Source: an uncultured delta proteobacterium (lineage in GTDB: Bacteria > Desulfobacterota > Syntrophia > Syntrophales > Smithellaceae). Taken from it: a DNA stretch of 64,000 bases. Numbering within the stretch: the stretch's first letter is position 1; the number at the start of each line of letters is the position of its first letter. The position numbers and the translations under genes are program-made. The notes under the pieces are model-generated. The model was not told the origin of the DNA. It saw only the letters and a list, made by a program, of their open reading frames with translations, and ran no database searches. This document shows positions 2 to 32,258 of the stretch, in pieces. The DNA lies in assembly GCA_963710995.1 (NCBI GenBank), contig CAVQCU010000056.1:432-64431 (forward strand), given 5' to 3'.

Positions 2-742
<741 letters not shown>

Positions 743-825: not shown

Positions 826-848
826 TACAACGAATTGATTTCTCCATC

Positions 849-1938: not shown

Positions 1939-2200
1939 TTATCCCTTTTTTCAAAGCCAGCCACCATGTAAAGCCGAAGAGGATCGTCTTGATGAAGGCG
2001 GTACGTCCTGAGATACCTTTTCCGTCTGCTATTTTTTTTGATATGAGGGGAAATTCCAGGACATGAAGCGCTGCAAGGGCAATAAAAACAATCCACGCGA
2101 TCATCGATATGGACGGAACTAAAATCGCGGCGAGAAGTACCGCGACCCACAAACCAACCGCGCCAGCCATCAGGAAATACCAGAAACATTTTGAGTTCAT
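1928..2200 (-). CDS. Small integral membrane protein (3 predicted TM segments)
   Basis: 90-aa hydrophobic ORF packed between the two Fe-S paralogues. Its 3' end overlaps the next start by 11 nt. Confidence 0.55.
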   Translation of the reverse strand: MNSKCFWYFLMAGAVGLWVAVLLAAILVPSISMIAWIVFIALAALHVLEFPLISKKIADGKGISGRTAFIKTILFGFTWWLALKKGIIEK

Positions 2201-2215
2201 ATAAATCCTCTTGAA

Positions 2216-3040
2216 TTATTCAAAATTTATAAATGTTTTTATCCTGCCGTATATTTCATTCACCGCGCTTTCAACGCTTGCGATCTCGACACTGATCGCT
2301 TTCTCTTTGCAAACTGACGCGCATATCCCACAACCTTTGCATTTTTCCTGATCGTGAACTATCCGGCCGCAAGTAAGTTTTATGGCATCCATGAAACATT
2401 CGTCAATACATTTTCCACACTGTACGCATTTATCTTCAATGACGTCTATGGTCAGGCCTTCAAGCTTCACTATCGAGTCTGCGGCTTTTTCAGGCCAGTA
2501 TTTACCTGACTTGAGTATTGTGCAGCAGCATGTACAACAGTGGCAGAGCGTCAGAAGCTTTCCTCTGTCTTTCACTCCCCAGATGAAGTTGTCTATCCTG
2601 ACGCGACCCGTCTGCGGGATAAGGCCGTCTTCGAGTGTCTTGTGGAAATGTTCAATCGCTTCGTCAACTGAAACGTGCCTGGCTATCCGTGGGTCGATCT
2701 CTTTCGTCCCCTCGCCGAGGAGCGTGCATCCATATTCGATCGGATGATTCTTGCATCCGCAGGCGTCGCGGCACGTGCAGCGGTTGATTATGACCCTGTG
2801 TGAAGACTGTCTTACCAATACCTCAACCACCTTCTCCGGCAGGAAAGAAGATTCGGCTCCTTTTACTTCTTTATTTATGGGGATATAGCTGATGTTAAGG
2901 TTATTTCCTGAAAATAGCGGTGTCGTGACGACCGCGAGAAGTTTTCCTAAAACCGGAATTTTAGTCATCCTGGCGCTGGTCCAAGTTATCGGCCAGACAA
3001 CAGCAAGGAATTTAAGCCACCATGCGGGCCTTCTCGACAT
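2216..3040 (-). CDS. 4Fe-4S dicluster domain protein, paralogue of 1045-1938
   Basis: CVQCGKCIDEC and CKGCGICASVC ferredoxin motifs plus a shared Cys-rich core (CTCRDACGCKNHP..HCCTCCC). Confidence 0.75.
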   Translation of the reverse strand: MSRRPAWWLKFLAVVWPITWTSARMTKIPVLGKLLAVVTTPLFSGNNLNISYIPINKEVKGAESSFLPEKVVEVLVRQSSHRVIINRCTCRDACGCKNHPIEYGCTLLGEGTKEIDPRIARHVSVDEAIEHFHKTLEDGLIPQTGRVRIDNFIWGVKDRGKLLTLCHCCTCCCTILKSGKYWPEKAADSIVKLEGLTIDVIEDKCVQCGKCIDECFMDAIKLTCGRIVHDQEKCKGCGICASVCKEKAISVEIASVESAVNEIYGRIKTFINFE

Positions 3041-3127
3041 TGATTGTTCTCCTGATGCTGCTTTTGTTTCTTATATATGTTGATGCGCTTTGCCTGGCGC
3101 ACTAAGACATTGCTTTTCCATGCTTGA

Positions 3128-3156
3128 ACTATACGAATTTTGGTTTTGTATGTCAA
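3128..3156 (-). promoter_or_regulatory. Sigma70-type promoter inside module A, reading into 2216-3040
   Basis: Minus strand reads TTGACA-17 nt-TATAGT. Confidence 0.6.
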
Positions 3157-3280
3157 CAAAATATAGGTCGCAAAAATATAAGGTGTAGTGTCGATGCTTG
3201 CCGTTAAGAATGAATTGTGTTTATTACAGATTGAAAGAAAGTATATACGTGAAAAATCCTTAATGCTCGCTTACAGGAAG
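3128..3280 (+). repeat. Cassette-boundary module, full copy A (promoter part + box1 + linker + box2)
   Basis: Contains TTGTATGTCAA, GTGTCGATGCTTGCCG, GAATTGTGTTTATTACAGATTGAAAG, a 33-nt linker and TTACAGGAAGGAAGAAAG. Confidence 0.8.
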
Positions 3281-3432
3281 GAAGAAAGAAATAAAAAATT
3301 GGAGCGTAGCGATCGGCTGGATTGATTTGTTAAGAGGTTTTATGGAACAGAACAACTTCATTAAATAAAAACATAATTAACAATCTGTCAGGCCTCCAGA
3401 TTATCAAGACTGCTGCATGGCGAAAAAGGCAC

Positions 3433-3750
3433 TTATGTGATCATAGAGAATCCTACCTGAGTGATCTGGTCTTCCAGCTTCTTGATCCAGGACACTTTGG
3501 CTTTCACTATGGGGAGCTTGCCACATTTGCAAAGTACTTCCTGCCCCTGTTTGAAGCTTACTCCACCCACAAAAACGCCACAGCACCCCTTAAAACTTTC
3601 ATTTTGGCAAAGACCCACGCGCTGTTCCGTCTTCTTAGTACTCTCATCCAGATAATAAATAGTGACAAGCTCGTTCGGCTCAGCAGAATACCTAGTGTGT
3701 TTTCTATCTTTGTAACCGCTCATTGAAAACTCCCTCTGGTCTATTTCCAA
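3433..3750 (-). CDS. PilZ-domain protein (putative c-di-GMP receptor)
   Basis: RKHTRY (RxxxR-like) and NESFKGCCG (D/NxSxxG-like) motifs in a ~100-aa single-domain ORF. The start may instead be the internal ATG at 3723. Confidence 0.55.
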   Translation of the reverse strand: MEIDQREFSMSGYKDRKHTRYSAEPNELVTIYYLDESTKKTEQRVGLCQNESFKGCCGVFVGGVSFKQGQEVLCKCGKLPIVKAKVSWIKKLEDQITQVGFSMIT

Positions 3751-3823
3751 TCGAAAAGGACTTTCAATAAAATTTAATCTTCATAGGAAAATATTTGATA
3801 AGAGCTTGCTTTCACTGGAAGTG

Positions 3824-3852
3824 AGTGTAGTGTAGCCACGCATGTATGTCAA
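3824..3852 (-). promoter_or_regulatory. Sigma70-type promoter inside module B, reading into the PilZ gene
   Basis: Minus strand reads TTGACA-17 nt-TACACT. Confidence 0.55.
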
Positions 3853-3970
3853 GGAAATCTTGGCCACAAAATGTTAAGTATTAACGTTTGTCGTCGGGCG
3901 TAAATTGTGTTTATTACGGATTGAAAGCTTGCATCTTTGTCGAGATTGGCGTTTTGTTGATTACAGGAAG
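3824..3970 (+). repeat. Cassette-boundary module, full copy B
   Basis: Contains GTATGTCAA, TAAATTGTGTTTATTACGGATTGAAAG, a 33-nt linker and GATTACAGGAAGAAATGC. Confidence 0.8.
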
Positions 3971-4198
3971 AAATGCTTGCTGAGTTCCTACAAATACTCA
4001 ACTTTAGTACATTAATAAATTTGAGCATTATTGATCGAAAAGATGTAACGATTAATCAGTAACACGTGCAACTATTTTTGCAAAATCAATAAGTCGCCTT
4101 AATTAAAGGAGTGCCGGTCGGCTGACTGTAATCTATGGAAGTTTATTTTTTCTATTTCTGTTGACGGCAGAAAGAGCAGGCACATTCGCAATAGTCCT

Positions 4199-5341
4199 CT
4201 ACTCGAAGCCCATGATCTCATAAAGGCATTCACCTTCCAAAGGGATAACTTTGCCATGCTCGATGATGTTACCATTATATCTTGCAATGACCCGGAAATA
4301 GGTAGGCCTCGCAATAAACGTGCGAGCGACCCACTGGGAAAAGGGGTTCAATTCTGCTGTCGTGAGAAGGTCAACATCTTCTACCAAGGAATTGAACTGG
4401 ATGTGCAGGTGAGCCTCCACCTCTCCCTCGGCAAAATCAATACTGATCTGTCTCGGATAATGGCGCTTCAATACAGGGTGAGTGACGAAATCCCACTGGC
4501 GAATTGTAGGACTGCCTGTGCCTACGATAATTTTATCTCCCTTGGCAATATAAAGCGGCCTCGCCTTATTCATGGAAGGATCGATATAGTCAACGTCTGC
4601 GTAGATGATGGTATACTCGTTCGCGAAGATCCTTCCCCACACCCAGTGCCGCGTTATCTCGTTGAGTGGTTTCCTGCCCCAGTTGTGGTCGGCATATCCC
4701 ACTCCTTTTACATGCCGGGTATGCCCGTCCTGGGTTATGGTGCCCTCTATGCGGTTACGTGCCTGATGCACGCTCCAGAAAAAATCAAGGGAGTCTTCGT
4801 TGACTCTATCTGTACCGGCGGGCATCCATCCCGGTGCTATCATGGTAAATTTTAAATCTGCCACGATGCCTTCCATGTTCCACTGCACATGGTAATTCTT
4901 ATCGTCCATTCTTCGGACAAAACCCAAGGGGCAGGTAACATCCACATCCTCTGTTGAGGATTGCATCTCTTCGGTTTGAAGTGATTTTAGAATGGACCTT
5001 TTCTTCCAGTCCGGGCTGTAGAGCGAAAATGTGACCCCGGGTTTTCCGTTCGTAAAACTCGGGTGAAGGAATGCCCCCACAAAGGTCTCTCCAGTATCTA
5101 AATGTCCATCAAAGTACCACCACTCGAAGGGACGTTTGCCTGTGATCGTATGGCGGGCCCTGTCCTGAGCATTGGGTTGGTTCTTGCCCCAATTCAGATA
5201 CGCGTTGCTTTTGCCAATGCTCTCGGTGGGTCTAGGCAAAGAGGTGCAGGAAAGGGTTGCCAAGACCAGCAGTACGGCGAAAAAAATTGCTGGAAACATA
5301 TCTGGCGCGTGGCATTTTTTGATAAGATATTGCTTCTGCAT
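4199..5341 (-). CDS. CrtC/AttH-like (hydroxyneurosporene-synthase family) lipoprotein
   Basis: Signal peptide ending in a lipobox-like LATLSC. WEWWYFDGHL motif and beta-rich 380-aa body are typical of the CrtC/AttH lipocalin-like family. Confidence 0.65.
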   Translation of the reverse strand: MQKQYLIKKCHAPDMFPAIFFAVLLVLATLSCTSLPRPTESIGKSNAYLNWGKNQPNAQDRARHTITGKRPFEWWYFDGHLDTGETFVGAFLHPSFTNGKPGVTFSLYSPDWKKRSILKSLQTEEMQSSTEDVDVTCPLGFVRRMDDKNYHVQWNMEGIVADLKFTMIAPGWMPAGTDRVNEDSLDFFWSVHQARNRIEGTITQDGHTRHVKGVGYADHNWGRKPLNEITRHWVWGRIFANEYTIIYADVDYIDPSMNKARPLYIAKGDKIIVGTGSPTIRQWDFVTHPVLKRHYPRQISIDFAEGEVEAHLHIQFNSLVEDVDLLTTAELNPFSQWVARTFIARPTYFRVIARYNGNIIEHGKVIPLEGECLYEIMGFE

Positions 5342-5347
5342 GGATAA

Positions 5348-5376
5348 ATTATAGGAAGGCCTGTCTTGTATGTCAA
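5348..5376 (-). promoter_or_regulatory. Consensus sigma70 promoter placed for a leaderless mRNA of 4199-5341
   Basis: Minus strand reads TTGACA-17 nt-TATAAT-TTATCC-ATG. The start codon begins 7 nt after the -10 box. Confidence 0.65.
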
Positions 5377-5461
5377 GAAAATCTTGTGGTGTGAATGATG
5401 TTTATTACGGGTTGAAATCTAGCATATTTATTGAGGTTGATGATTTGTGGATTACAGGAAG
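5348..5461 (+). repeat. Cassette-boundary module, copy C
   Basis: Contains TTGTATGTCAAG, GAATGATGTTTATTACGGGTTGAAAT, a 33-nt linker and GGATTACAGGAAG. Confidence 0.8.
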
Positions 5462-5552
5462 TTATCGATAGCATGGTGGTCACTGATGCGGATAAGCATG
5501 TTGAGTGGTTTGTGTGGGCCGGGGGAAGAACCCCCGGCACCTGGAATAGCTT

Positions 5553-6071
5553 TTATTTCAGCCTTTCTTCCGACAATTGCAAATGGTCTGTTTCGATTTC
5601 CACTAATGCTTCAAAAAGCTGCTTTATCCGTTGATGATCCGATTCCATAGCCGACTTTTTATAGAATGCGATCGCCCTTGCTTCCCTTTCGTGGGACTCT
5701 TTTAAGTTCTCAACATTCTCAATGTGGCATGTCTCGCTTCCCGGAGGAACGGATCCCAGCTTGAGTATTTTTCTCCATATGGACGCGTGCTCCGCCTCAA
5801 TCTTGCCCAGCGCTTTGAACAAAATTTTCCCTTCAGGATCATTTGTTTTATCCGCAGCGCACGCATAAAATGTCGAATTGCTTATTTCCACCTTGAGAGC
5901 GTGTTCGACATTAGTTTTATCCTGGGTGCTGAGAGGAATATCAAAGTTCACTATAACCGCTTTTACCTCCATAATGTAACTCATGTGGGCACCGCAGAAA
6001 GGGCAGTTTGACGGAGGATTGGCGCCGATATACGCATCGCCGCAAATAATACATCTGTACAATTTAACCAT
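5553..6071 (-). CDS. Rubrerythrin-family protein with N-terminal rubredoxin-like Cys4 site
   Basis: N-terminal CIICG..CPFCG followed by a ferritin-like four-helix region (..EHAL..EAEHA..HEREA..ETDHL). Confidence 0.75.
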   Translation of the reverse strand: MVKLYRCIICGDAYIGANPPSNCPFCGAHMSYIMEVKAVIVNFDIPLSTQDKTNVEHALKVEISNSTFYACAADKTNDPEGKILFKALGKIEAEHASIWRKILKLGSVPPGSETCHIENVENLKESHEREARAIAFYKKSAMESDHQRIKQLFEALVEIETDHLQLSEERLK

Positions 6072-6101
6072 TTTTTCTCCTTTCAGAATCCTTCAATTTT
6101 T

Positions 6102-6130
6102 ATATTACCAATTATTTTATCGTTTTACAA
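6102..6130 (-). promoter_or_regulatory. Sigma70-type promoter of the rubrerythrin gene
   Basis: Minus strand reads TTGTAA-17 nt-TAATAT, about 30 nt upstream of a GGAGAAAAAA RBS and the ATG. Confidence 0.45.
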
Positions 6131-6197
6131 TTTCCAGAGGCCATGGAGATTGCAGTATCCCCGCACCATAATATTCTCCGCCTTTTCAAAGCGTTAT

Positions 6198-6581
6198 TTA
6201 CTTGCCGTCGCCAATTAGAGGCAATATTTTGTCCACTTTAAAATAGATGAGAAATTTTGATTCCGTATTATCTTTACACCCGATTCCTTTATATTTCTTG
6301 CGGCGGATTTTTTCGATCAGAGAGCTGTCTTTTTCCTCGTGTGTCTTTGTAAGATAAAGCCTTCGTCCTTTATAAGAGCCATCCTCTTTGAATAGATATG
6401 TAGCGGAAGGATTCTTTTTCAAATTGGCGTGAGTCAATCTATCGGAGGCAATAAAGGCAACCGTATATTCATCCATAAAATGCGGCCGTCCATAGATAGC
6501 CGCATTTACCTTTCCCTTGTCATCGGCGGTAGAAAGAACGCCGACTCCATTAGTATTTTCAAAATAGTCGTCAAGCTTCAT
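6198..6581 (-). CDS. Pyridoxamine-5'-phosphate-oxidase-like (FMN-binding split-barrel) protein
   Basis: ~127 aa with a GVLSTADDKGKVNAAIYG..HFMDE pattern. I moved the start to the ATG preceded by AAGGAG. Confidence 0.6.
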   Translation of the reverse strand: MKLDDYFENTNGVGVLSTADDKGKVNAAIYGRPHFMDEYTVAFIASDRLTHANLKKNPSATYLFKEDGSYKGRRLYLTKTHEEKDSSLIEKIRRKKYKGIGCKDNTESKFLIYFKVDKILPLIGDGK

Positions 6582-6662
6582 ATTTTCTCCTTTTAAATCC
6601 AACTCTTTTCAGGTAAATTAAGGCATCTTTATCTGATTGTAAAGAGAAAGGGCAAATTTAAA

Positions 6663-7178
6663 ATGAAAAAAATAATCATTATCTTTGTTTTATTAGTAGC
6701 AGGTTGCGTCAATGTACCGGAAAATATAACACCTGTTGATAATTTCAATATCGAGCGGTATCTGGGAAAGTGGTACGAAATAGCTCGGCTTGATCATTCC
6801 TTTGAACGGGGGCTCACGTCGGTTAGTGCTGAGTATAGCCTGCGGTCCGATGGAGGTTTGCGGGTTGTGAATCGAGGTTATTCTCAAAAGGAAAATAAGT
6901 GGAAAGAGATTGAAGGCAAGGGGTATTTCGTTGATCGTAAAGATCAGGGCTTTCTGAAAGTTTCTTTTTTCGGCCCTTTTTATGGATCGTATGTTGTCTT
7001 TGATCTGGATCGTGAGAATTATTCATACGCACTGGTATGTGGTCCAGATAAATCTTATCTATGGCTTTTGGCCCGCAACCCGAAAATAGATGATAATTTG
7101 AAAAAACGTCTGGTTGATAAAGCCGCCTATCTGGGATTTGACACGGACAAATTAATCTACGTACAGCATGATGACTAA
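6663..7178 (+). CDS. blc: Bacterial lipocalin (outer-membrane lipoprotein Blc)
   Basis: Lipobox LVAGC, then the signature NFNIERYLGKWYEIARLDHSFERG and ..LWLLARNP.. of Blc-type lipocalins. Confidence 0.9.
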   Translation: MKKIIIIFVLLVAGCVNVPENITPVDNFNIERYLGKWYEIARLDHSFERGLTSVSAEYSLRSDGGLRVVNRGYSQKENKWKEIEGKGYFVDRKDQGFLKVSFFGPFYGSYVVFDLDRENYSYALVCGPDKSYLWLLARNPKIDDNLKKRLVDKAAYLGFDTDKLIYVQHDD

Positions 7179-7182
7179 ATCA

Positions 7183-7243
7183 TTTATTACGGATGGAAAT
7201 CTAGTATATTCGACAAAGATAACGATTTATTTATTTCAGGAAG
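7183..7243 (+). repeat. Cassette-boundary module, core-only copy D
   Basis: Contains TTTATTACGGATGGAAAT, a 33-nt linker and TTTCAGGAAGAAAAT. Confidence 0.7.
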
Positions 7244-7293
7244 AAAATAATTATTTAGCTAATATTAAGTTTGTTATGAAAGTTAATATTAGC

Positions 7294-9000
7294 CTAACCC
7301 ACGTTAACGCTGTCCCACTTTCCTTTTTCGCGCAACTCCTTAATGATTTCCTCCGCCAGTTCTTTCAGTGCCAGTTTATCCACTTTTGTGCTTCTGGTTA
7401 GCGGCAGTAGTTTATCAGCAGGCCATATTTCCACATGCTGTGGCCTCTTGTAGGCCGCTATTGATTTACAGTAGTCCATTACAGCTTCCGGTGTAAGGGA
7501 AATACCAGCTACTGGACGCACAAAGGCAAAAATTCCTTCGTCAAATACACGGTGAGGCATGCCGACAACTTCTGCAACATCGACGCCTTCCATACTGACA
7601 ATAAATGACTCGATCTCATCGGGAAATACATTGTAGCCTTTCTGTTTTATCACGAACTTTCGCCGTCCGGAAAGGTAGAGTGCACGATAGCTTCCCATCT
7701 CCTTGAAATATCCGAGGTCCCCCGTGTACAGGATTCCCTCTTTTGAAATCGCCTTGGAGGTTTCCTCAGGTTGATTAAAATAACCCAGAAAAACGATGGG
7801 AGGATGATAGCATATTTCCCCTACTTCACCAACTGGTAGCTCTTCTCCTGCTGAACCGTCCTCTTTCATCGGACTGCGGATAGTAACCGGAGCAAGGTCC
7901 GGATAGGCCTGCCCGACCTGACCAGCCATCTCTTCAAGGGATATACCCTCAGGTGTGAATGTGGCAAATCCCGCATTCTCTGTCATACCGATGCCAGTGC
8001 CAAAACGTGGCGCCATTTTGGACAGCTTTTTAAGAAATTCAACGTCGACTGCAGACCCGGCATAAGCAACAAATTTAAGGCTTCCCAAATTATATTTAGC
8101 ATAGTTTTTATGAGCCCATAGCATCCGAAACTGTGTTGGAATCTGGCCGAGAGCATTAATACTCCATTTCTCAATGGCCTCCAAGGTAAGTGCAACATCA
8201 AAGACGCGAAGAAAAACTGATGTGCCTCCGCGATAAGTTGTTGTCATGAAAAGCTCAGTCACACAACCCACATGGCTTGGCGGGAGATTGATCAATACAC
8301 GCATATCCGATGAAAGGTTTGTTCCACGGGAAAGGATCTCGTTTTGCACGAGAATATTTTCATGACACAATACTGCCGGTTTAGGTTCACCGGTGGTACC
8401 TGTGGTATAAATGATAAGAGCCGGTGTGCGGGGGCCTATCTCTGCATAGACCCTTTCAAGCTTTCGAGTAAAAACATTCTTTATTTTAAGCCATAAGAGA
8501 CGTCCTTTGTTCATCAATTCGGTAATTGATATTGCTCCAGGAATTATATCACCTGGCTTCGGATCAGGTGTAAACTGGACAAGATGTTCCACATATGGAC
8601 AACGGTCACATACAGCCTCACCTATTTTTGTAAAATCTATGACAGAGGTCTTGCCAAGAAAAAAGAATGCCTTTGGTTTTATCTTGCCAAGATCGCGCAC
8701 AACCTCATCTTCCTTAAGGCGAAGATCCAAGGGGGCAATAATGGCTCCTATTTTAAAGCAGGCATACATGAAAATGATATGTTCAGGGATGAGTACAAGC
8801 TGTGTGGCGACGCGGTCACCTTTGCCTATACCCATATCAAGTAGCTTCAAAGCAAAAAAGTCAATGAGCGTCTTAAATTTACCGTACGTCACAATCTTCC
8901 CGTCTTCGTGCTGGATCATGGCTTCTCTATCCGGTACCTTTTGTGCCCAGTACTCGACGTAGTTGTTCAAAAGCGGCAACTTGACCATAACATCCTTCAT
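7294..9000 (-). CDS. AMP-dependent acyl-CoA synthetase/ligase
   Basis: AMP-binding motifs IIYTTGTTGEPKP and YTGDLGY. I moved the start to the ATG at 9000 to avoid overlapping the upstream MaoC gene. Confidence 0.85.
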   Translation of the reverse strand: MKDVMVKLPLLNNYVEYWAQKVPDREAMIQHEDGKIVTYGKFKTLIDFFALKLLDMGIGKGDRVATQLVLIPEHIIFMYACFKIGAIIAPLDLRLKEDEVVRDLGKIKPKAFFFLGKTSVIDFTKIGEAVCDRCPYVEHLVQFTPDPKPGDIIPGAISITELMNKGRLLWLKIKNVFTRKLERVYAEIGPRTPALIIYTTGTTGEPKPAVLCHENILVQNEILSRGTNLSSDMRVLINLPPSHVGCVTELFMTTTYRGGTSVFLRVFDVALTLEAIEKWSINALGQIPTQFRMLWAHKNYAKYNLGSLKFVAYAGSAVDVEFLKKLSKMAPRFGTGIGMTENAGFATFTPEGISLEEMAGQVGQAYPDLAPVTIRSPMKEDGSAGEELPVGEVGEICYHPPIVFLGYFNQPEETSKAISKEGILYTGDLGYFKEMGSYRALYLSGRRKFVIKQKGYNVFPDEIESFIVSMEGVDVAEVVGMPHRVFDEGIFAFVRPVAGISLTPEAVMDYCKSIAAYKRPQHVEIWPADKLLPLTRSTKVDKLALKELAEEIIKELREKGKWDSVNVG

Positions 9001-9043
9001 ATATTTCTCCCTGAATTGTTCTGGTACTTTGTATCTTCTGGCC

Positions 9044-9928
9044 TTAATCAGCGGAGAGACAACCGCTGCTAATAACTCGTTTCCCATCGATGTTGCATAC
9101 ATCGAACAACAAGTCTGTTGCGGTATTGTTTTTCCTTTTTTCAATCATACGGACAGAAATATTCGAACCGGGTAAAACCATACCGGTGAAACGGCAGGAA
9201 ACTGATTTGACCCTTGTTGGTTCTCGGTTGAGTTCTCTATTAACAAGTTCCGTAACGGCAAGGGCAAGGGTTGCGGTACCCTGCAGGATAATACCCGGAA
9301 GGCCTACCATGCGGGCAAATTTAATTGAAGTGTGAATGGGGAAAACAATATCAGTACAGCCATCATAAACAAATGGCATAAGCTTGTCTATTGATAAAGT
9401 GCTCGTCCAGCAGGGATCAACTGCATCACTGATATTCTGGACAATGGGAAGAGATTCCTTACCGGAGCCGCCACCGATACATTCAACACCGCGTAGCATA
9501 GCCCCTATATGTTCAGTAAATACCGGGGCTCCTTCTTTTTCCCGGGCAACAAGGCGGATTATGACATGAGTGCCAGCGCGATGTGGCAGTATCGCAACAA
9601 TTTGACCTTTAATGACAAGCTCAAGGCCTGGTGATAACGGCTGATGAATTTCCAGATGCTCTGTATAATGCACTTGAGAAAGTAACAGCTCCGTAGGAAA
9701 TTTTTCTGAAACAATAAATTCCTGAATCCGGCCTATGATGTTCCAGCTGATAGCTACAGGATAAAGAGGGTGTGCGATAATTCCATTAGAACTTTCATCA
9801 TCAAAATATCGTGGATTAGCGTCGCCAATCGCTGCTGAATAATTCATGATATCCCGCCAGTTCACTGAAGTTTCGTAATCCCGTAGATGTGTTCCGTTCA
9901 GCTCCGAGTTAAGGGTAGGTTTGTTCAT
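9044..9928 (-). CDS. MaoC-like double hot-dog (enoyl-CoA hydratase/dehydratase family) protein
   Basis: ~295 aa with two hot-dog halves (..YSAAIGDANPRYFDD.. and ..IVFPIHTSIKFARMVGLPGIILQGTATLA..). Confidence 0.7.
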   Translation of the reverse strand: MNKPTLNSELNGTHLRDYETSVNWRDIMNYSAAIGDANPRYFDDESSNGIIAHPLYPVAISWNIIGRIQEFIVSEKFPTELLLSQVHYTEHLEIHQPLSPGLELVIKGQIVAILPHRAGTHVIIRLVAREKEGAPVFTEHIGAMLRGVECIGGGSGKESLPIVQNISDAVDPCWTSTLSIDKLMPFVYDGCTDIVFPIHTSIKFARMVGLPGIILQGTATLALAVTELVNRELNREPTRVKSVSCRFTGMVLPGSNISVRMIEKRKNNTATDLLFDVCNIDGKRVISSGCLSAD

Positions 9929-10070
9929 AATAATAAACCCCAATAATTATTTTGAGTCTAATAGACAGTTTTCTCCGGACAAGTCAGATCAATTTTTATT
10001 CTCACCTTTTATCGCCGAGAAACACACCAATCAGTGCTTACATATCATAGTTTCCATAGCAATAAAATTG

Positions 10071-10133
10071 GTGATTATTACGTGAAATAGTTTATTTTCG
10101 TAGAGGTTAACAATTTGTACAGTACATGAAGAA
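10071..10133 (+). repeat. Cassette-boundary module, degenerate copy E
   Basis: GTGATTATTACGTGAAAT..ACATGAAGAAACTG gives only partial matches to box1 and box2, at the expected inter-cassette position. Confidence 0.3.
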
Positions 10134-10262
10134 ACTGTCATACTTATGATGAAGAGTATTTTTAAGAAAACATTGCATCTAACACCTACAAAGTCACAAC
10201 GGTAGGCTGTTGCTAGAATTGAGAATTACAATTTGTAATCTGTTTTAGAGCCTCCCATAAGA

Positions 10263-10544
10263 TCAACGACAATACCCCCTGCTTTTAAACAAGTCTAACC
10301 CTTTGCAGAATTTCATTGAGCAGGCTTTTTGTAGGTCATTACAGCACAGCTTATTGTCACCATGTTTAAAATGAGCAATTCCACGATTGTTATAGGCAAT
10401 GGCATTATTAGGTTGCAGTTTTATTGACTCATTAAAATCTTTGATGGCAAGTTGGTATTTACCGAGTTTGTTGTAAGTAATTCCCCTCCTATTATACGTG
10501 ACGACTGCATCCGGTTTCAGGCGAATGGCTTCGGTCGTATCCAT
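10263..10544 (-). CDS. TPR-repeat protein, probably an N-terminally truncated fragment
   Basis: Two to three TPR units (..YNRRGITYNKLGKYQLAIKDFNESIKLQPNNAIAYNNRGIAH..). The ORF begins in mid-repeat. Confidence 0.5.
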   Translation of the reverse strand: MDTTEAIRLKPDAVVTYNRRGITYNKLGKYQLAIKDFNESIKLQPNNAIAYNNRGIAHFKHGDNKLCCNDLQKACSMKFCKGLDLFKSRGYCR

Positions 10545-10764
10545 AGGATAAGATGTCTTAAGTCCTTTCGAGTTCTGCGCTCAAAGATTGAATTTGTGCT
10601 GATGGTCTCCGCACATTCAATAGGCAGTAATATCATTTCCTAGTTGTCATGGAAAAATTAATTGTAACCACACACCTCAAAAGATTATTCATCTCATTAT
10701 CTACGTTAAATTATAACTAAGATTTATTATTACTACAAGATTCTAATGAGATTTTTTGATATAA

Positions 10765-12276
10765 TTAAGCGTGGTCTTTACAAGCTGGAAGAATGAATTG
10801 CTCCTTCAGTGCCCTTGTACGCCGTTTCTGATAGTAACACTGAACCTTTGCCATTGCTCGAATAGCCTGTTCCGGGGATGAATAAGCCATGATCCCCATC
10901 GAGTCCAGATGCTTGACGATATTGCCTTCACCAACCATGTCAAAACCGACAAGGTCAATGACAGGTAAGATGGGTTTATTGAAGTGCTTTATCTGTCGAA
11001 TGATGAGATTCAGCAGTTCCATCTCATCGGCAATCATCTTTCGGGCAGGCTGCTCCATCAACTCGATCGGGAGAACAGGTGACGACATCCAGTTTCTTGC
11101 GCGGCTGGTCATGTACCCCAGGCCAAGAAGAAGAATGGCATCCATATCAGCATATTTCAACAATATTTCGATAGAATCCGTTATCATCGAAACCCTTCCC
11201 GGTGCGACCAGATCGACCGGGTTCCGTCTGCTCCAGAATGCTGGCAGGAATGCATCGAGCATGCTAACCACACGCTCATCCAGCGGCGGGATCTCCAACC
11301 CAGACATCTCACACAGGTCAGCAGATATCACGCCCCATCCACCCCCTAGCGTGACAATACAGATGCGTTTTCCAGTGAACTGTGGCTGTGACAACATGAG
11401 CCCGGCGATATCCACCATCTCATCCATGGTATCCACCAGAATTACATTGGCCTGGTGGCACATGGACTGAAACACCGCGAAGCTTCCTGCCATTGCTCCG
11501 GTATGAGACATGGCCGCGTCAGCGCCGCAGGTCCCAGTGCCTCCCTTGAGAAGTATGACGGGCTTGGCCGATGATATGCGCCGGATCGTTTCGATGAACC
11601 GGCGGCCCTGGCGAACTCCTTCGATATAGAGGCATATAACCCGTGTCTTTTCGTCCGTTTCTAAATATTCCAGGTAATCTTCAATCGTGAGGTCTGCCTC
11701 GTTGCCAGAGCTGATCAGGCGGCTGATGCCAATCTCACGACGGAGAAAACGGTATGAGATGGCGGTTCCCAGATTGCCGCTCTGGGATACCACGGCAACG
11801 GGTCCCTGCTTGAATGTCGCAGCGGTCATGACCGCCTGCATGCGTGACGGATATGCGCTGTAAACTCCCATGGTGTTCGGACCTACTATACGAATGCCTC
11901 CGGCGTGCGCGATAGAAAGGACCTCCTGTTCCAAAGCCTTCCCCTCTGCGTCCGTTTCGCCGAATCCTGCTGTGATGATCACGACGGCATGTATGTCTGC
12001 GTCAATGCATTCACGAAGCGTATTCGGAACTCTTTCTTTAGGAACGACTATGATGGCCAAGTCAATCGGCCGAGGGGCTTCGGCCAGGCTTTTATACATT
12101 GGCCTGCCAAACCATATTCCGCCTTGGGGATTTATCGGATATATGTTTCCGGTGTACCCTCCCTTTATGAGGTGATGGAGAATGTTAAATCCCCATTTGG
12201 TGGGATTTGTTGACGCACCAATAAACGCAATCGCCCGCGGTTCAAAAAGGGATGTATAGAATGATCTGTGATCCAT
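10765..12276 (-). CDS. ADP-forming acetyl/acyl-CoA synthetase-like protein (CoA-binding + SCS-like domains, no ATP-grasp domain)
   Basis: N-terminal CoA-binding fold (IAFIGAS..KWG..YPINP) and the phosphohistidine-loop-like MSHTGAMAG. Confidence 0.75.
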   Translation of the reverse strand: MDHRSFYTSLFEPRAIAFIGASTNPTKWGFNILHHLIKGGYTGNIYPINPQGGIWFGRPMYKSLAEAPRPIDLAIIVVPKERVPNTLRECIDADIHAVVIITAGFGETDAEGKALEQEVLSIAHAGGIRIVGPNTMGVYSAYPSRMQAVMTAATFKQGPVAVVSQSGNLGTAISYRFLRREIGISRLISSGNEADLTIEDYLEYLETDEKTRVICLYIEGVRQGRRFIETIRRISSAKPVILLKGGTGTCGADAAMSHTGAMAGSFAVFQSMCHQANVILVDTMDEMVDIAGLMLSQPQFTGKRICIVTLGGGWGVISADLCEMSGLEIPPLDERVVSMLDAFLPAFWSRRNPVDLVAPGRVSMITDSIEILLKYADMDAILLLGLGYMTSRARNWMSSPVLPIELMEQPARKMIADEMELLNLIIRQIKHFNKPILPVIDLVGFDMVGEGNIVKHLDSMGIMAYSSPEQAIRAMAKVQCYYQKRRTRALKEQFILPACKDHA

Positions 12277-12320
12277 AGCAGCTCCTTGTAATTGGTGCGA
12301 ACTTACTTTTCCGAGAAGGG

Positions 12321-12349
12321 AGTATAAGGAAAACGCATTTGTATGTCAA
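12321..12349 (-). promoter_or_regulatory. Sigma70-type promoter inside module F, reading into 10765-12276
   Basis: Minus strand reads TTGACA-17 nt-TATACT, about 40 nt upstream of the AAGGAG RBS. Confidence 0.6.
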
Positions 12350-12420
12350 TGAAGAACGAGCCACAAAACGTGGAGTGAGGTGTCGACTACTGTCGAGCAT
12401 GTATAGTGTTTATTACGGAT

Positions 12421-13117
12421 GTATGCCGTGTAAAACGTATGACTAGTCGGTTAAAGTCCGACCATGGAGTTCGGTAGTTCGCCCATGTAGCTTGAGGGAG
12501 GTGTTAAGGGTAAACTGAAGCACTAAGTTCTCTGACAAAGGCTCCGTAAGAGAGTCGAGCAAACCTGCGGGTCGCAGCGTGAGCGAACCTAGATGTAGCC
12601 TCGAAACACACGATGGAGTTGTCGACCCCGTAATGGAAGGGGGAAGACCGGAGCATCTATCATAACGATAACTACCAGAACCGATAGATGGACTTCCGGG
12701 GTAACAGGGGTGACACGCAGGAGCAGCCATACGACAATGAACACGGGAGACCCTTGTCGATGCTGTGGAAGCGGCAACTGGTGGATATAAGGGAACGAAA
12801 TTTTACCGGGTCGATAAGGGAGTCGGAGTTGCTCATAGTACCGCTTGTATTCCAAGGACAACATAACCTTGGGAGAGGGAAGGGGCAATACCTTCATCAT
12901 GCTTCTAAAGGAGTGAAGGAAAGGAGATTGTGGTAACGCTATTAACTCTGAATATTTCGAGAACTCAGGTGGAAGCTATACTGGAAGGCCAAGTGAAAGC
13001 GAAAGCTTCTGGAAGAAGATGATTGGAAAGCCGTATTCGGGAAAACCGAACGTCCGGTTTGATGAGGGGGAGCTGGAGATAGAACCATTTGGCAACTACG
13101 CCAACTTTCTATTCTAC
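12421..13117 (+). mobile_element. ORF-less group II intron, copy 1 (~697 nt)
   Basis: Canonical domain V at 13028-13060 (AAGCCGTATTCGG-GAAA-ACCGAACGTCCGGTTT). A DVI-like region ends ..CTAC. Boundaries were inferred from uninterrupted modules. No reverse-transcriptase ORF is present. Confidence 0.75.
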
Positions 13118-21134: not shown

Positions 21135-21277
21135 AAAATATTGTCTCCTTTAGCTGTTGACCTTAATTCATCCTGACTCAATTGTTACGTTTTAAGTCGA
21201 TTGATAATTTTTCCTCTGGTTATTGACCTACCCCAAATAATTGTACCACATATTAAGTTAGAGTTCAGCCACTTTTT

Positions 21278-21339
21278 GTTGATTACAATTTGAAACGTTG
21301 TATGAATTGAGAAAATAAGAAAATCAATCTTACAGGAAG
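21278..21339 (+). repeat. Cassette-boundary module, core copy H (abuts the IS3 left inverted repeat)
   Basis: Contains GTTGATTACAATTTGAAAC, a 33-nt linker and CTTACAGGAAGAAAGAAAG. Confidence 0.65.
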
Positions 21340-21374
21340 AAAGAAAGATTTTTGCTAACGTAATTGAATTTTGT

Positions 21375-21740
21375 TTAAATCAACCATGAAGCCGGGGACA
21401 GGGAATCAAGACCAATGACCTTTCTCGCCTTATTGCACGTAGGATTGTGATGTCCGGTTTTCCATGAAGGCTCGAAATCCCGGCAGACGGATGGGCGATG
21501 GTCATAAATCGTGCATTGCACTTTCCGCCCCGGTTCTCCGCAAAGAGCAATGCATCTTCGCTCTTGAGGGCTTGTCCAACACATAGCTCTACGAAAATTA
21601 TCAACCTTCATAGTTTTACTGACAGGAACACCTCCTTCCAAAACATCATCCGCTTCTGCCCAATAAAAGGATACTCGAAAATTAATGCAACACGCTCCGC
21701 AATCAAGGCAATGATTGAATCCGGCTATTTTATCGTCCAT
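21375..21740 (-). CDS. YkgJ-family (UPF0153) cysteine-cluster protein
   Basis: CLDCGACCINFRVSFYW plus a downstream Cys cluster (CIALCGEPG..C) are characteristic of the YkgJ Zn/Fe-chelating family. Confidence 0.7.
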   Translation of the reverse strand: MDDKIAGFNHCLDCGACCINFRVSFYWAEADDVLEGGVPVSKTMKVDNFRRAMCWTSPQERRCIALCGEPGRKVQCTIYDHRPSVCRDFEPSWKTGHHNPTCNKARKVIGLDSLSPASWLI

Positions 21741-21785
21741 AGAGTCGATTCCTCAGTTTCTTCGGTTTTTGGAATTAAGGAATAC

Positions 21786-21850
21786 TGTTTGTAACCTAGC
21801 ATAAAATTAAAAATAAAAGAACTGTGGACTTCAGCTTACTATAAGGAAGA
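21786..21850 (+). repeat. Cassette-boundary module, variant copy I
   Basis: Contains CTGTTTGTAACCTAGCATAAAATT..CTTACTATAAGGAAGAAAT. Its first 26 nt are identical to copy J. Confidence 0.6.
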
Positions 21851-21882
21851 AATAAAATTTCAATTTCCAAACCAAGATCTTT

Positions 21883-21999
21883 TATACCTTGAAAGAAGCG
21901 AAGACGCTGATTGAAAAATGGCGCATGGAAAACAACACGTTCAAGCCGCACAGTTCTTTGAATTACCGCTCTCCAGCGCCAGAGGCGTACCTGAATTGA
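21883..21999 (+). pseudogene. IS3-family transposase, C-terminal remnant
   Basis: Translates to YTLKEAKTLIEKWRMENNTFKPHSSLNYRSPAPEAYLN*, the conserved tail of IS3 OrfB (rve) proteins. Confidence 0.75.
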
Positions 22000-22147
22000 G
22001 AAATAAAAAGTGGCTGAACTCTAACTTAATATGTGGTACAACTATTTGGTGCAGGTCAAATTATGTAGGGGGATACTAGCCCTAATGATTTTGATATGGG
22101 GAATGTCAGCTTAAACTCTTAAATCCGGGGACACCCTGAGGAGAACC

Positions 22148-23089
22148 ATGAAAAAACAAACTAAAGTAGCCGCAATTCAACTTGCCACAAAAGTAGGGGA
22201 TTCAACCGCGAATATCGCCAGCTGTCAGCGTTTATCATTACTGGTGGTCCATGAGGGCGCGCGCTGGATCGCGTTGCCGGAGTTCTTCACTACGGGAGTC
22301 AGTTGGAATCCGAGCATTGTCGAAGCCATTCAGACCACTGACGGCACGGCGGCAAGTTTCTTGCGTGACTTTTCCGCAAAGCATCAAGTGGTGTTGGGAG
22401 GCTCATTCTTATGCAGGCTTTCCGATGGCAGTGTACGCAACCGCTACTTGTGTTATGCGAACGGCACTCTTGTTGGCAAGCACGACAAAGACCTTCCTAC
22501 GATGTGGGAAAATTATTTCTATGAAGGCAGTGACCCGATCGACAGCGGTATGCTCGGGACCTACGACAACACGCGTATCGGCGCGGCCGTCTGTTGGGAG
22601 TTCATGCGCACGATGACCGCACGTCGGCTCCGCAATCAGGTGGATGTGATCATGGGCGGTTCGTGCTGGTGGAGCATACCCACCAATTACCCTGGCTGGC
22701 TCCAGAGACTCTGGGAGCCGGAAAACATTCGCAACGCCCTTGCCGCCATACAGGATAGTGCCCGTCTCATCGGTGCGCCGGTCATCCATGCCGCGCATTG
22801 CGGCGAGATTGAGTGCCCAATGCCGGGGTTGCCGATCATCAAATACCGGGGTTTTTTTGAGGGTAACGCGGCTATTGTGGATGCGAACGGCCATGTGCTG
22901 GCGCATCGTAGTGCCAAACAAGGCGAAGGAATCGTTTGTGCAGAGGTTTCGTTGGGCGCACAAGCGACTACCGAAGAAATCCCCAATCGTTACTGGCTAC
23001 GCAACAGAGGTCTTCTGCCCACTCTTGCATGGCATCATCACCGTTGGTTGGGGCGGCACTGGTATGCACGTAACGTGCGTCAGGCATAA
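22148..23089 (+). CDS. Carbon-nitrogen hydrolase (nitrilase superfamily) protein
   Basis: E-K-C triad context (WIALPEFF, GKHDKDLP, AAVCWEF). By eye it is markedly more GC-rich than its flanks. Confidence 0.8.
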   Translation: MKKQTKVAAIQLATKVGDSTANIASCQRLSLLVVHEGARWIALPEFFTTGVSWNPSIVEAIQTTDGTAASFLRDFSAKHQVVLGGSFLCRLSDGSVRNRYLCYANGTLVGKHDKDLPTMWENYFYEGSDPIDSGMLGTYDNTRIGAAVCWEFMRTMTARRLRNQVDVIMGGSCWWSIPTNYPGWLQRLWEPENIRNALAAIQDSARLIGAPVIHAAHCGEIECPMPGLPIIKYRGFFEGNAAIVDANGHVLAHRSAKQGEGIVCAEVSLGAQATTEEIPNRYWLRNRGLLPTLAWHHHRWLGRHWYARNVRQA

Positions 23090-25512: not shown

Positions 25513-26298
25513 GTGAAAAATAATTCTTTTAGCAATAGAGTTAAAATAATACTGGTTCTGGCTATCGCGCTATTAGTGGCGCAGATAGCCAATACCATAT
25601 TTGCAGCCGAGAAGTATCCTTCGCCGCGCGGCGCAGTCAATGATTTTGCCAATGTCATTGATCAGGATAACGCCGTTAAAATAGAAGCTTTGTCGCGTGA
25701 AGTTTTACAAAAAACAGGCACGGCGGTTGTTGTGGTAACTGTCCCTACTATCGGAGAAGGAGAAGAAACCAGTCTCTATGCTAATGGACTTTATAAAGCG
25801 TGGGGTATCGGGAAAAAGGGCGAGGACAAAGGTCTTTTAATTTTTTTAACTGTTAAAGAAAAAAAATATTGGATTGAAACCGGTTACGGTGTAGAGGGTA
25901 TATTGCCGGATGGTTTGGTCGGTGAAATCAGAGACAAGTATCTAAAGCCGCAACTCCAAGCAGGTAATTATGGTGATGCTTTTTATGACACAGTGTCCGC
26001 ATTTAGTTCTATTATTGCCAAAGATGCCGGTGTTCAGCTGAGCGGATCGCCCGCACCATACCGGACAAATGCCCGCGCCCAGCAAAAAGGCATTAACGTT
26101 TTTGGATTAATATTTTTCTTCATTGCGGCTGCCTTGCTTTTAGGCACAAGAACAGGAAGATCAATGCTTCCCTGGATATTGCTTTTGTTCTTGAGTGGCG
26201 GCCGTGGTGGTGGCGGTGGCGGCGGTGGTTTCGGCGGCGGCTTTGGCGGTTTTGGCGGCGGTGGTAGCGGCGGCGGCGGGGCCGGTGGAGATTACTAA
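25513..26298 (+). CDS. TPM-domain (YgcG-like) protein with a TM segment and Gly-rich tail
   Basis: Signal/anchor, TPM region (VNDFANVI..LLIFL..ETGYGVEGILPD), a TM helix and a GGGGGGFGGGFGG tail. Confidence 0.8.
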   Translation: MKNNSFSNRVKIILVLAIALLVAQIANTIFAAEKYPSPRGAVNDFANVIDQDNAVKIEALSREVLQKTGTAVVVVTVPTIGEGEETSLYANGLYKAWGIGKKGEDKGLLIFLTVKEKKYWIETGYGVEGILPDGLVGEIRDKYLKPQLQAGNYGDAFYDTVSAFSSIIAKDAGVQLSGSPAPYRTNARAQQKGINVFGLIFFFIAAALLLGTRTGRSMLPWILLLFLSGGRGGGGGGGGFGGGFGGFGGGGSGGGGAGGDY

Positions 26299-30451: not shown

Positions 30452-31863
30452 CGAGACACTTTGGTAGAGGTAATATTTTTGATCAATTTATTAATTCTTT
30501 TTGTATTCACAGCACCATTTTCATCGATTAAGTGCTGTCACTTATGTTTATGAAGAGTTCATTTTACCCCCATATGCAACCTCATTCGTCCCGGATTACT
30601 GGTTTTCCCGTGTATTGGATGTACGCCTTCCTATGTTACGCCGTTTTTAATATTCTGGAAGCCCGGGAAAGATTGAACGCCATCTGCCGGAAGAGAGCAT
30701 CAAGCGCATTTTTAATCAACTTCGGGAACCTTGCCCGATATGCCTTGTTGTATAAATGGCTTAATCCGAAATACTGTTCAACGATATACCGTACTTTAGA
30801 AATAGCTTTGTTACGCTCTTTTTCATATTCCGTAAGTTCGGCGCCTGTTGTCGCTTTACGCATAATGCCGTCTTCAATACTGTTCATGGAGAGAAACTCT
30901 CGATTCGGCTTTCCAAAATACCCTTTATCCGCATAAACTTTTTTAATAGGTTCTTTCGTGTGACAACTACCGGCAACGCAAAGAGGAAGATAAGGACTAT
31001 CATGATGAGAAGCAGGAGTCATCTCCGTGGACAGAACAAAACCATGTTTAACATCCACGGAAGCATGTTCCTTAATTCCGTAATGGGCGACATCATTTTT
31101 GACTGTCCAGTCCGATTCCAGATCGCGGGAGAATTTAAGCGCGTTGCCGTTCTTATCAACTTTTCCTTGAGGCGTTTTACTCTTTGCTTTTTCTTTTTGA
31201 AGTATTTCATTGCTGAGTGGATGGGAAGCAGATTGCACCAGACGGGCATCAATGGCTATGCCCTCGTTGATTGTCAAGCCCTTGGCGGCAAATTGTAAAA
31301 GGAGTTCATGGTTGATCATGCGCATAGTATCTATAGAAAATCGGCCCCTGAACCTGGAGAATGTAGAATGATCGGGAGATGTATCGTCAAGGGAAAGTCC
31401 CAGGAACGTTTTGAAAGAAGTCCTGTCGTTGATTTGAGTTTCCAGTTCCGGGTCGGAATCGATCTTGAACCATTGCTGAAGAAGAAGGCACTTCATAAGG
31501 ATAAGAGGTGGATAGGCGTCGTTTCCTTCAAAGCTTTTACCGACGGGATATTTTCTCATGAGGAGGCTTTCAATTCTGGACCAGTCGACAGTGGCGTTGA
31601 TCTGTTCCATTCTTTTAATAGCCCGGTTCTTTTCCATGGAAGCAAAGAGCGATATATCGGTGAAGGTGAAGTTGGTTTTCATTTTTTTGAAGCTCATAGT
31701 TCCTCCAAGAAGTTTTATTTGAAGGAATTATGCCTGAAACGCAACTGTTTGTCAAGATATTTATACAATAATATCAATATATTAGCTTTGAATAACTGCT
31801 TTTTAACCGGAGAATTATTAGGAGAATATAATTGAAAACTATCGCTAGTTGTGCAAAGGTCTC
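30452..31863 (-). mobile_element. IS5-family insertion sequence (boundaries approximate)
   Basis: Single DDE transposase ORF. Imperfect terminal similarity between CGAGACACTTTGG..ATATTTTTGATCAATT (left) and the reverse complement of ..AATTGAAAACTATCG..CAAAGGTCTCG (right). Confidence 0.5.
30636..31697 (-). CDS. IS5-family DDE transposase
   Basis: N-terminal DUF772-like region (..RMEQINATVDWSRIESLL..PPLILMKCLLLQQWF..SD) and a DDE_Tnp_1 C-terminal part (..YADKGY..). Confidence 0.85.
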   Translation of the reverse strand: MSFKKMKTNFTFTDISLFASMEKNRAIKRMEQINATVDWSRIESLLMRKYPVGKSFEGNDAYPPLILMKCLLLQQWFKIDSDPELETQINDRTSFKTFLGLSLDDTSPDHSTFSRFRGRFSIDTMRMINHELLLQFAAKGLTINEGIAIDARLVQSASHPLSNEILQKEKAKSKTPQGKVDKNGNALKFSRDLESDWTVKNDVAHYGIKEHASVDVKHGFVLSTEMTPASHHDSPYLPLCVAGSCHTKEPIKKVYADKGYFGKPNREFLSMNSIEDGIMRKATTGAELTEYEKERNKAISKVRYIVEQYFGLSHLYNKAYRARFPKLIKNALDALFRQMAFNLSRASRILKTA

Positions 31864-31900
31864 GATAATCTGATGGGCGCACGAGTCAAGTATTTGCTTC

Positions 31901-32001
31901 TTCCTGTAAGAGAGCGTCTCTGTTTTTTTCATTTATGCGATATTTCAACAGGCAATGATTACTTAAAAACAATTGACATACAAACGGAACTTTTCTATAT
32001 T
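31901..32001 (-). repeat. Cassette-boundary module, inverted degenerate copy L with intact promoter part
   Basis: Plus strand reads CTTCCTGTAAG..TTTCAACAGGCAATGATTAC..TTGACATACAA..TATATT, immediately next to the IS5 end. Confidence 0.5.
31973..32001 (+). promoter_or_regulatory. Module-type sigma70 promoter reading toward the pilT-like gene
   Basis: TTGACA-17 nt-TATATT with the family-specific TTGACATACAA extension. Confidence 0.5.
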
Positions 32002-32258
32002 TTCCCTGCAAGAAAACAATGCCTTATCAAATACGGCAAAATGATCTCCACACTGACATTGTAGGCAAAATTTGCGCAATGTTTTTATAGAGAAACGTCC
32101 GTCCAAGCGAAAAGGGGAAAATGACATGACCACGCTTCCTTTCAGCATAATGTCCAATTATTTGCGATGATGCTAATATTTGTTGCTTTTTTCAGGCTGG
32201 AAGTATATTTTTTCCTTCCAGGGAGTTCCCTCCGGAAGGAGCCGGAGGCTCCCTGCAA

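Follow-up and report, generated by a model that had tools for sequence, protein, structure and literature searches.

Two inverted IS3-family right ends frame a ykgJ-type gene and two intergenic modules in a Smithellaceae contig

How does a gene come to lie between the terminal repeats of an insertion sequence (IS) from which most of the transposase is missing? The question is raised by a 64,000-nt stretch of contig CAVQCU010000056.1 (assembly GCA_963710995.1, positions 432 to 64,431 of the forward strand; an uncultured delta proteobacterium of the Smithellaceae), hereafter the window, in which an 835-bp structure (21224-22058) carries inverted ends of IS3 type around a ykgJ-type gene and two copies, H and I, of an intergenic repeat termed the module. 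The original prediction, made from the sequence of the window, was that one IS3 copy had been invaded by modules, or by cassettes bounded by them, and had then lost about 1.2 kb of its interior in place. Comparison with intact relatives and with other loci (numbered with the prefix L) favors another reading, to which a probability of about 0.6 is given: the structure would be a mosaic, non-autonomous, cargo-holding IS3 derivative that resembles a mobile insertion cassette (MIC), has two right ends, and has had its content reshuffled by recombination at modules. The copy in the window is probably an inert mosaic rather than a recently transposed unit.

Anatomy of the structure and its intact reference

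From tip to tip (TGACCT to AGGTCA) the structure spans 21224-22058, and a repeat search delimits its inverted arms as 21223-21280 and 22002-22059, 58 nt each, 93% complementary and separated by a spacer of 721 nt, which bears out the near-perfect terminal repeats of the original prediction. The 64-kb window has exactly two occurrences of a 31-nt core of the arms, TGTACCACATATTAAGTTAGAGTTCAGCCAC, against 0 expected from 100 shuffles. The left arm (IR58; 21223-21280, minus strand) is the outermost 58 nt of an IS right end in inverted orientation, its tip TGACCT facing outward. Module H (21275-21349, plus strand) follows it directly, as had been claimed, with box1 TGATTACAATTTGAAAC and box2 TTACAGGAAGAAA; the module hidden Markov model (HMM) matches 21258-21349 (E 2.7e-13), and homology to solo modules, which align only from the position of 'TTTGTTGATTAC' onward, starts at about 21275. 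Then come the ykgJ-type gene, module I, the last 39 codons of orfB and the right repeat, in the order originally described, the first three recognized by PF03692, the module HMM and rve_3, respectively. The ykgJ-type gene (21375-21740, minus strand) has a GAGGAA ribosome-binding site and encodes an intact product of 121 aa with a PF03692 CxxCxxCC domain, a putative Zn/Fe-chelating domain (E 2.2e-9); homologues found in other contexts are 92, 88, and 77% identical. It is the only intact gene between the arms, and there is no transposase gene inside. Module I (21777-21860, plus strand) gives a weaker HMM match (21783-21854, E 8.7e-4) and is a hybrid, with a crossover zone at 21810-21835. The right arm, termed the tail unit (21873-22059, plus strand), consists of the last 187 nt of the IS, that is, orfB codons, the stop codon and the right inverted repeat (IRR). 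Its coding part (21880-21999) holds 39 codons and a stop, ends in KPHSSLNYRSPAPEAYLN and matches the C-terminus of PF13683 (rve_3, E 8e-8). The natural left end, orfA and about 85% of orfB (roughly 230 of 270 codons) are lacking; the element is not an IS. The whole 835-bp unit was seen only in the same species, in two ENA metagenome contigs (L001 and L002, 98.7-99.9% identity). One of these, L002 (ena:ERZ25039535:contig_33393), matches the window with two segments of opposite orientation (1-5928 and 5924-12453) and is probably a palindromic assembly artefact; one of its arms carries a diverged IR58-H copy.

The parent of the structure would be a 1.24-kb IS3-family IS of Syntrophales (Smithella-like) bacteria. 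A metagenome scan recovered four complete intact copies (L248, 1,236 bp; L291, 1,237 bp; L266, 1,243 bp; L306, 1,239 bp), and such copies are located in related Syntrophales metagenome-assembled genomes (MAGs) and in peat metagenomes. Two of the four are flanked by 4-bp target-site duplications (TSDs), GTAG in L248 and TATT in L291. The element of L032 is nearly complete, and that of L043 is interrupted between the orfB stop and the IRR by a second IS3-type element (3313 to about 4510) with a 4-bp duplication, AAAT. The orfA product is of HTH_Tnp_1 type and its gene ends in the slippery heptamer G_GGA_AAC, while the orfB product reaches 239.6 bits against the NCBIfam model NF033516, 'IS3 family transposase' (cutoff 160), with further matches to rve, rve_3, and HTH_21. 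Because these relatives total 1,236-1,243 bp, the interior missing from the window copy amounts to about 1.0 kb and not to the 1.2 kb first estimated. The natural left end, TGACCTGCCCCCCGAAAACCGATCCAaTATTTAAGTTAGGATTGGGGTATAATA in five copies, is followed by a leader of about 75 nt and the orfA start codon. None of the five holds module-like sequence; hence the segment 21278-21880 is not native IS sequence, a point that the original prediction had made dependent on finding an intact element, of which several are now at hand.

The intact copies also identify the left arm. Within these copies, only 38-41 of 57 positions are common to the two ends, and the central block differs, being CGATCCAaTAT on the left vs. 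TTGTACCACATG on the right. The left arm carries the right-end block (TTGTACCACAT...TTCAGCC). Over 57 positions, the left arm is identical to its own IRR at 53, to the IRRs of intact copies at 44-49, and to natural left inverted repeats (IRLs) at just 35-37. A profile built from many right ends aligns with the right arm over 21873-22059 (model positions 9-195, E 2.9e-62) and with the left arm over 21280-21223 on the minus strand (model positions 138-195, E 1.1e-11). The structure is thus bounded on each side by the right end of an IS3-family element, tip outward. The left repeat had been taken for the left end of the IS itself; since it is of right-end type, the structure is not one emptied IS, and no trace of a natural left end, leader or orfA was found in it.

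Dispersed arms, modules and split relatives

Each arm also belongs to a family of dispersed repeats. Searches with the 40-aa tail protein returned only proteins of 42-70 aa (20 matches, 78-95% identical), most of which diverge upstream of a single point, (G)EIFYTLKEAK; three (P0007, P0009, and P0011) retain the native NG, and one more (P0012) has 29 native residues. The sources name these open reading frames (ORFs) 'transposase InsO family protein'. At the DNA level, the 187-nt tail unit stands in 81 unique non-native contexts vs. 6 native ones among the fetched loci (L013-L042 and L212-L331, which are metagenome contigs plus Syntrophales and related MAGs). The units all begin within about 4 nt of a boundary, S, lying between GGAGAA and ATATTC at the near-palindrome AGAAATATTCT. 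Upstream of S, GAA at positions -3 to -1 is nearly invariant, A at -4 (67%), G at -5 (44%) and G at -6 (32%) are less constant, and beyond these positions the sequence is random. The tail in the window belongs to a less common class, in which homology with the native gene may continue for about 12 nt further upstream. A 21-nt word of the tail is present in MAGs of Smithella, Smithellaceae, Syntrophaceae, and Syntrophales, in MAGs labeled 'uncultured delta proteobacterium', and in many JGI metagenome contigs. Among singleton substitutions in tail units, 20% are synonymous vs. a neutral expectation of 20.3%; selection on a 36-40-aa tail peptide was rejected on this equality, and the unit evolves neutrally. 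Open frames that span both flanks of tail units are no commoner than with shuffled partners, a comparison that does not discriminate. The fixed boundary S, without TSDs, is not explained by ordinary IS3 transposition and is the most interesting loose end of the analysis; an IS91-type or IS200/IS605-type cause was considered for the absence of TSDs and rejected, as neither flank shows a conserved target tetranucleotide.

The left arm is likewise one copy of a recurring unit. IR58 stops at the same inner boundary in about 17 contexts; 12 of these continue with an H-type module that ends just past box2 (CAGGAAG), with unrelated DNA beyond. IR58 and the H-type module form a dispersed unit of about 125 nt, in which IR58 would have been fused to the module long ago. 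Since the inner boundaries of the arms recur in many loci and genomes, they were not made in place. As a side observation, the tip of a natural left end at L014 is directly adjoined by 50 nt of right end in inverted orientation.

The modules themselves are intergenic repeats of about 95 nt, with box1 (TTATTACGGATTGAAAG..GCAT) and, some 26 nt later, box2 (TTACAGGAAG); at least 10 copies lie in the window, and others in further Syntrophales loci. Solo modules have a good, conserved sigma-70-type promoter just outside box1 that points away toward the neighboring gene (TTGACATACAAgACAG..TATAAT/TATAGT/TATATT). Such outward promoters lie at about 5340-5375 (TTGACATACAAGACAG-N7-TATAAT), 20429-20401 (TTGACA-17-TATACT), and about 31974-32002 (TTGACA-17-TATATT) in the window, and in its relatives at about 1320-1365 of L036 and 960-985 of L286. 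In IR58-H units, the part that would hold the outward promoter is replaced by the IS end. A sigma-54 promoter, or a rightward sigma-70 promoter inside the module, was dismissed because the spacing, judged by eye, does not fit; of the candidates, only the outward one next to box1 convinces. Six module strands fold no better than shuffled sequences (z +0.13 to +1.78) and the modules have no Rfam match at E<=1, so that hairpins of the integron attC type do not account for them; no integrase was found among about 30 larger ORFs of the window scanned with Pfam. Two further proposals on the origin of modules were rejected: that they are decayed IS tails, as a common TTCTATACCTTGAAAGAAGC / TTATTACGGATTGAAAGAAAGC motif had suggested, because no solo module, whichever strand is taken, is detected with the tail profile; and that solo modules are decayed IR58-module units, because nhmmer aligns them from the module start and never in the inverted repeat. 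These profile searches show the inverted repeat, the tail and the module to be three separate entities.

Three kinds of mobile element touch modules, namely ORF-less group II introns, an IS110-family element and IS3 right-end pieces. Both introns, one of 697 nt at 12421-13117 on the plus strand (RF02003 domains D1-D4, about 80 bits; RF00029 domains D5-D6) and one of 700 nt at 54563-55262 on the minus strand (RF02003 at 55101-55239, 80 bits), are inserted at the same point of a module, ..TTATTACGGAT^TGAAAG... Contig L001 ends exactly at an intron edge. At L021, a frameshifted IS110-family gene (4916-6102, minus strand) ends 4 nt from a module that is cut at box2 (TTACAG^), which suggests that box2 is an IS110-type target. 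An IS110-family transposase gene with DEDD_Tnp_IS110 and Transposase_20 domains (47-742, plus strand), cut by the window start, is followed by box1-like sequence at 802-835. In addition, an IS5-type transposase gene (30636-31697, minus strand; DUF772 and DDE_Tnp_1) adjoins a minus-strand module at 31889-31967.

A second right-end remnant (55307-55414, plus strand) is 108 nt long, runs from about the HSSL codons of the tail to a degenerate tip and matches the right-end profile at model positions 83-194 (E 1.4e-19), its inner end pointing at module K. The latter (54504-55291, minus strand; HMM match 54504-54562) is split by an intron into box1 (55263-55278) and box2 (54511-54523). The remnant is real and adjacent to the module, as originally reported, at about 15-28 nt from box1. 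The original prediction had further raised the possibility that the breakpoints at the two remnants coincide with each other and with the intron insertion point. The positions differ. The IS-module junction of H (about 21277-21280) lies some 12 nt upstream of the equivalent of the intron site (GGAT^TGAAAG, between 21290 and 21291), while the remnant near 55.3 kb, which retains 108 nt vs. 58 nt in the left arm, meets module K no less than 10 nt further outward, with about 15 nt of no assigned origin in between. At L237/L293, the S end of a complete tail unit meets the same module edge, TGTTTATTAC. Three lengths of right end, 190, 108, and 58 nt, thus abut the left edge of a module in one and the same orientation; their exact joining points differ, and none is at the intron site.

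Pairs of IR58 and tail unit with their tips outward, within 1 kb of each other, are found in at least seven distinct loci with different content. Gene-free frames occur at L018 (about 330 nt) and in the L034 and L026 groups; the frame of L212/L309 holds a gene for a 129-aa secreted protein, that of L279 about 550 nt including a tRNA fragment, and those of L263, L014, and L030 other content. An inverted IR58 partner within 1 kb accompanies 9 of the 59 tail units that have at least 1 kb of flank, and fewer than 1 would be expected from the density of IR58 in the fetched loci. The same 'module-linker-tail' junction is shared by L018, L036, L286, L229/L277, and L330. In the most telling case, L277/L229, IR58 is followed in order by an H-type module from which 21 nt are deleted, a gene for a LuxR/GerE response regulator, a variant module, the linker seen in the window, the tail and the IRR. 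As these loci share both arms and the same 48-nt right flank with the window, one junction holds different genes. The shared 48 nt to the right of the IRR are 22060-22107 in the window; similarity ends at 22107, about 40 nt before the start codon of the CN_hydrolase gene, where no recognizable repeat is seen.

Two relatives divide the window copy between them. L206 encodes a YkgJ 92% identical to that of the window, aligns with 21242-21810 at 90.7%, and has IR58, module H, ykgJ and the left part of module I, with no tail and with different genes on both sides. L286 aligns with 21835-22537 at 96.4%, from box2 through linker, tail, IRR and flank to the CN_hydrolase gene; upstream it has another module subtype and a PilZ gene, and neither ykgJ nor IR58. 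The homology with L206 ends at 21810 and that with L286 starts at 21835, so that a synteny break falls inside module I. The same switch is seen within the module (alignment A1), the left part of which is L206-like and the right part L286/L036-like, and it coincides with a disrupted or duplicated box2 at 21827-21849 (ACTTCAG CTTACTATA AGGAAG) that may be a recombination scar. In this respect the original view of modules as sites of DNA recombination holds. A third locus, L204/L205 (Smithella sp.), has a YkgJ of 77% identity that lies between modules with no IS end and with other neighbors, and the block of ykgJ plus modules is found in three different gene neighborhoods. No modules or inverted repeats occur near the best ykgJ homologue of representative genomes. 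A PilZ neighbor that appeared to be common to the loci of CN_hydrolase orthologues proved not to be orthologous. The best named homologues of the genes neighboring the structure in the window come from Smithella.

Possible routes to the structure

The anatomy, the right-end identity of the arms, the recurrence of the units, the sister structures and the position of the breakpoint are directly observed. In the reading preferred here, recombination at modules would exchange what lies between or beside the arms. The simplest process would be homologous recombination among scattered copies of the module, breaking at or near box2. Most economically, the window copy would be a join, inside module I, of an L206-like 'IR58-H-ykgJ-I' segment and an L286-like 'module-linker-tail-IRR-CN_hydrolase' segment; the proposed direction follows from the count of events, because the window as recombinant needs one, and L206 and L286 as recombinants need two in the same zone. 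In principle, an intact IS could supply the OrfAB transposase in trans to bind and cut both ends.

Several points weigh against this reading. The direction may be the reverse, with the window ancestral and L206 and L286 as the recombinants. Modules are about 95 nt long and only 65-85% alike, which makes them a poor substrate for RecA, and a site-specific process is therefore possible. The structure has no TSD (the left tip TGACCT is preceded by ..GGTTAT and the right tip AGGTCA is followed by AATTAT..), and none above shuffled controls was found at any offset for 43 tail units with both flanks; the sister shells L277 and L026 lack one likewise. The frame is a minority arrangement, since 85% of tail units lack a partner within 1 kb. 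The search for an empty site gave none: the CN_hydrolase orthologues (85-88% identity) lie in unrelated neighborhoods, and identity to ykgJ reaches only 61% in the best homologue from GTDB representative genomes. Finally, the 64-kb window holds no intact copy of the IS, and the exact 31-nt repeat has no match in representative-genome contigs.

Other histories have to be weighed against the same evidence. The structure could be a working mobile insertion cassette, of which the whole 835-bp unit was transposed in one step by an IS3 transposase in trans, L286, L206, and L277 being later derivatives by recombination at modules. Both termini are complete (5'-TGACCT...AGGTCA-3') and 93% alike, the same arms frame other cargo in 9 of 59 cases vs. 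the fewer than 1 expected, and window and L206 cease to be homologous at about the tip of IR58, as would be expected at the end of an element. However, intact copies make 4-bp TSDs and this one has none, and the tail and inverted-repeat sequences evolve neutrally, with no sign of maintained function. L286 shows the identical junction of IRR and flank without the left arm, and L206 has the left arm without the right one; these one-armed relatives would require two further rearrangements in the same 25-nt zone. Single-step transposition is accordingly judged unlikely, while keeping some weight. The chance meeting of two unrelated IS right-end relics, inverted around a resident ykgJ gene, would imply neither a mechanistic link nor mobility. 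It would agree with the lack of TSDs, with the mostly solitary occurrence of both arm families, with the neutral evolution of the relics and with the generally patchwork character of the region, which shows a second synteny break at 22107 relative to L229. Yet outward-facing pairs of IR58 and tail within 1 kb recur in at least seven distinct loci, and ykgJ, found in three different neighborhoods, is not resident at a fixed place, which leaves coincidence improbable.

The in-place history put forward by the original prediction, in which modules or module-bounded cassettes entered a complete IS3 copy and about 1.2 kb of interior was then deleted, can point to an interior that is not IS sequence, to modules that abut both IS-derived arms, and to the targeting of modules by other mobile elements (the two group II introns at one site and the IS110-family element at box2 in L021). 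It is already contradicted by the intact reference copies and is hardly credible: the left arm is right-end sequence and not a natural IRL, there is no trace of IRL, leader or orfA, each arm exists without the other in close relatives, and both inner boundaries are common to many unrelated loci and species and are hence older than the locus. More speculative, and rather doubtful, is the idea that the two arm families are the ends of an undescribed gene-shuffling platform derived from IS3 right ends, with the fixed inner boundaries as joining sites. Joining at S and after box2 (CAGGAAG) would account for more than 80 S junctions without TSDs and for different cargo at one junction. Such a platform could have originated when a snap-back (template switch) at the S palindrome duplicated the IS right end and gave a two-right-end element, with breakage or recombination at its center thereafter.

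Comparison with known systems and the surrounding region

MICs are also called transporter IS or cargo-bearing non-autonomous IS derivatives. An example from Bacillus cereus is MIC231 (Chen et al., 1999; cited in PMC6542083). Like MICs, the mosaic preferred here has IS-type terminal repeats that frame one passenger gene, with no transposase inside, and mobility in trans by a related autonomous IS would apply by analogy. In contrast to MICs, its arms both derive from the right end and are unequal (58 and 187 nt), either of them occurs as a dispersed repeat by itself, a target duplication of the parent-IS type is absent, and cargo varies even among copies at the same chromosomal junction. A further comparison is with MITEs (miniature inverted-repeat transposable elements) derived from insertion sequences by internal deletion. 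The structure shares with them terminal inverted repeats without a transposase, and the short gene-free frames of L018, L034, and L026 are similar in this respect; unlike MITEs, the window copy is 835 bp long, contains an intact gene, lacks TSDs and is not multi-copy as a whole (only its arms are), and it is no simple internal deletion, as its left end is not the IS left end. Its kinship with the IS3 family (L248, L266, L291, L306, L032, and L043) lies in the right arm, which is 187 nt of such an IS, and in the 5'-TG...CA-3' termini of its repeats, while orfA and orfB with a -1 frameshift and the TSD are absent. Nor is it a composite transposon, neither arm being a complete IS.

Certain intergenic repeats attract mobile elements and mark rearrangements, among them REP/BIME, a target of the IS3-family element IS1397, and the NIME/dRS3 repeats of Neisseria. 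Modules resemble these in being intergenic, targeted by mobile elements and located at synteny breaks, and differ from them in the lack of hairpin potential and in the outward sigma-70-like promoter on the box1 side. In another report (PMC3189936), miniature right-end fragments of IS801 are described as mobilized in Pseudomonas syringae. The likeness lies in short pieces of one IS end dispersed in a genome; unlike IS801, which is a rolling-circle element of the IS91 family acting through a single end, the IS considered here is a DDE element of the IS3 family that normally needs two ends and makes TSDs.

Frames derived from IS ends with passenger genes are one route by which genes may move without a transposase of their own. 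The present locus offers a testable example of how intergenic repeats and IS relics may reshuffle genes in uncultured syntrophic Smithella/Syntrophales of peat and digester communities. The sharply bounded tail unit, with more than 80 contexts, no TSD and neutral evolution, is not accounted for by the standard copy-out-paste-in behavior of IS3 elements and should be of interest to those who study transposition mechanisms. For annotation, the lesson is that the 'InsO family transposase' proteins of 42-70 aa retrieved with the tail are such relics fused to unrelated DNA. Further along the window, a run of GGC/GGT triplets (26197-26289), encoding a Gly-rich stretch, lies at the 3' end of a TPM_phosphatase-domain gene (25513-26298).

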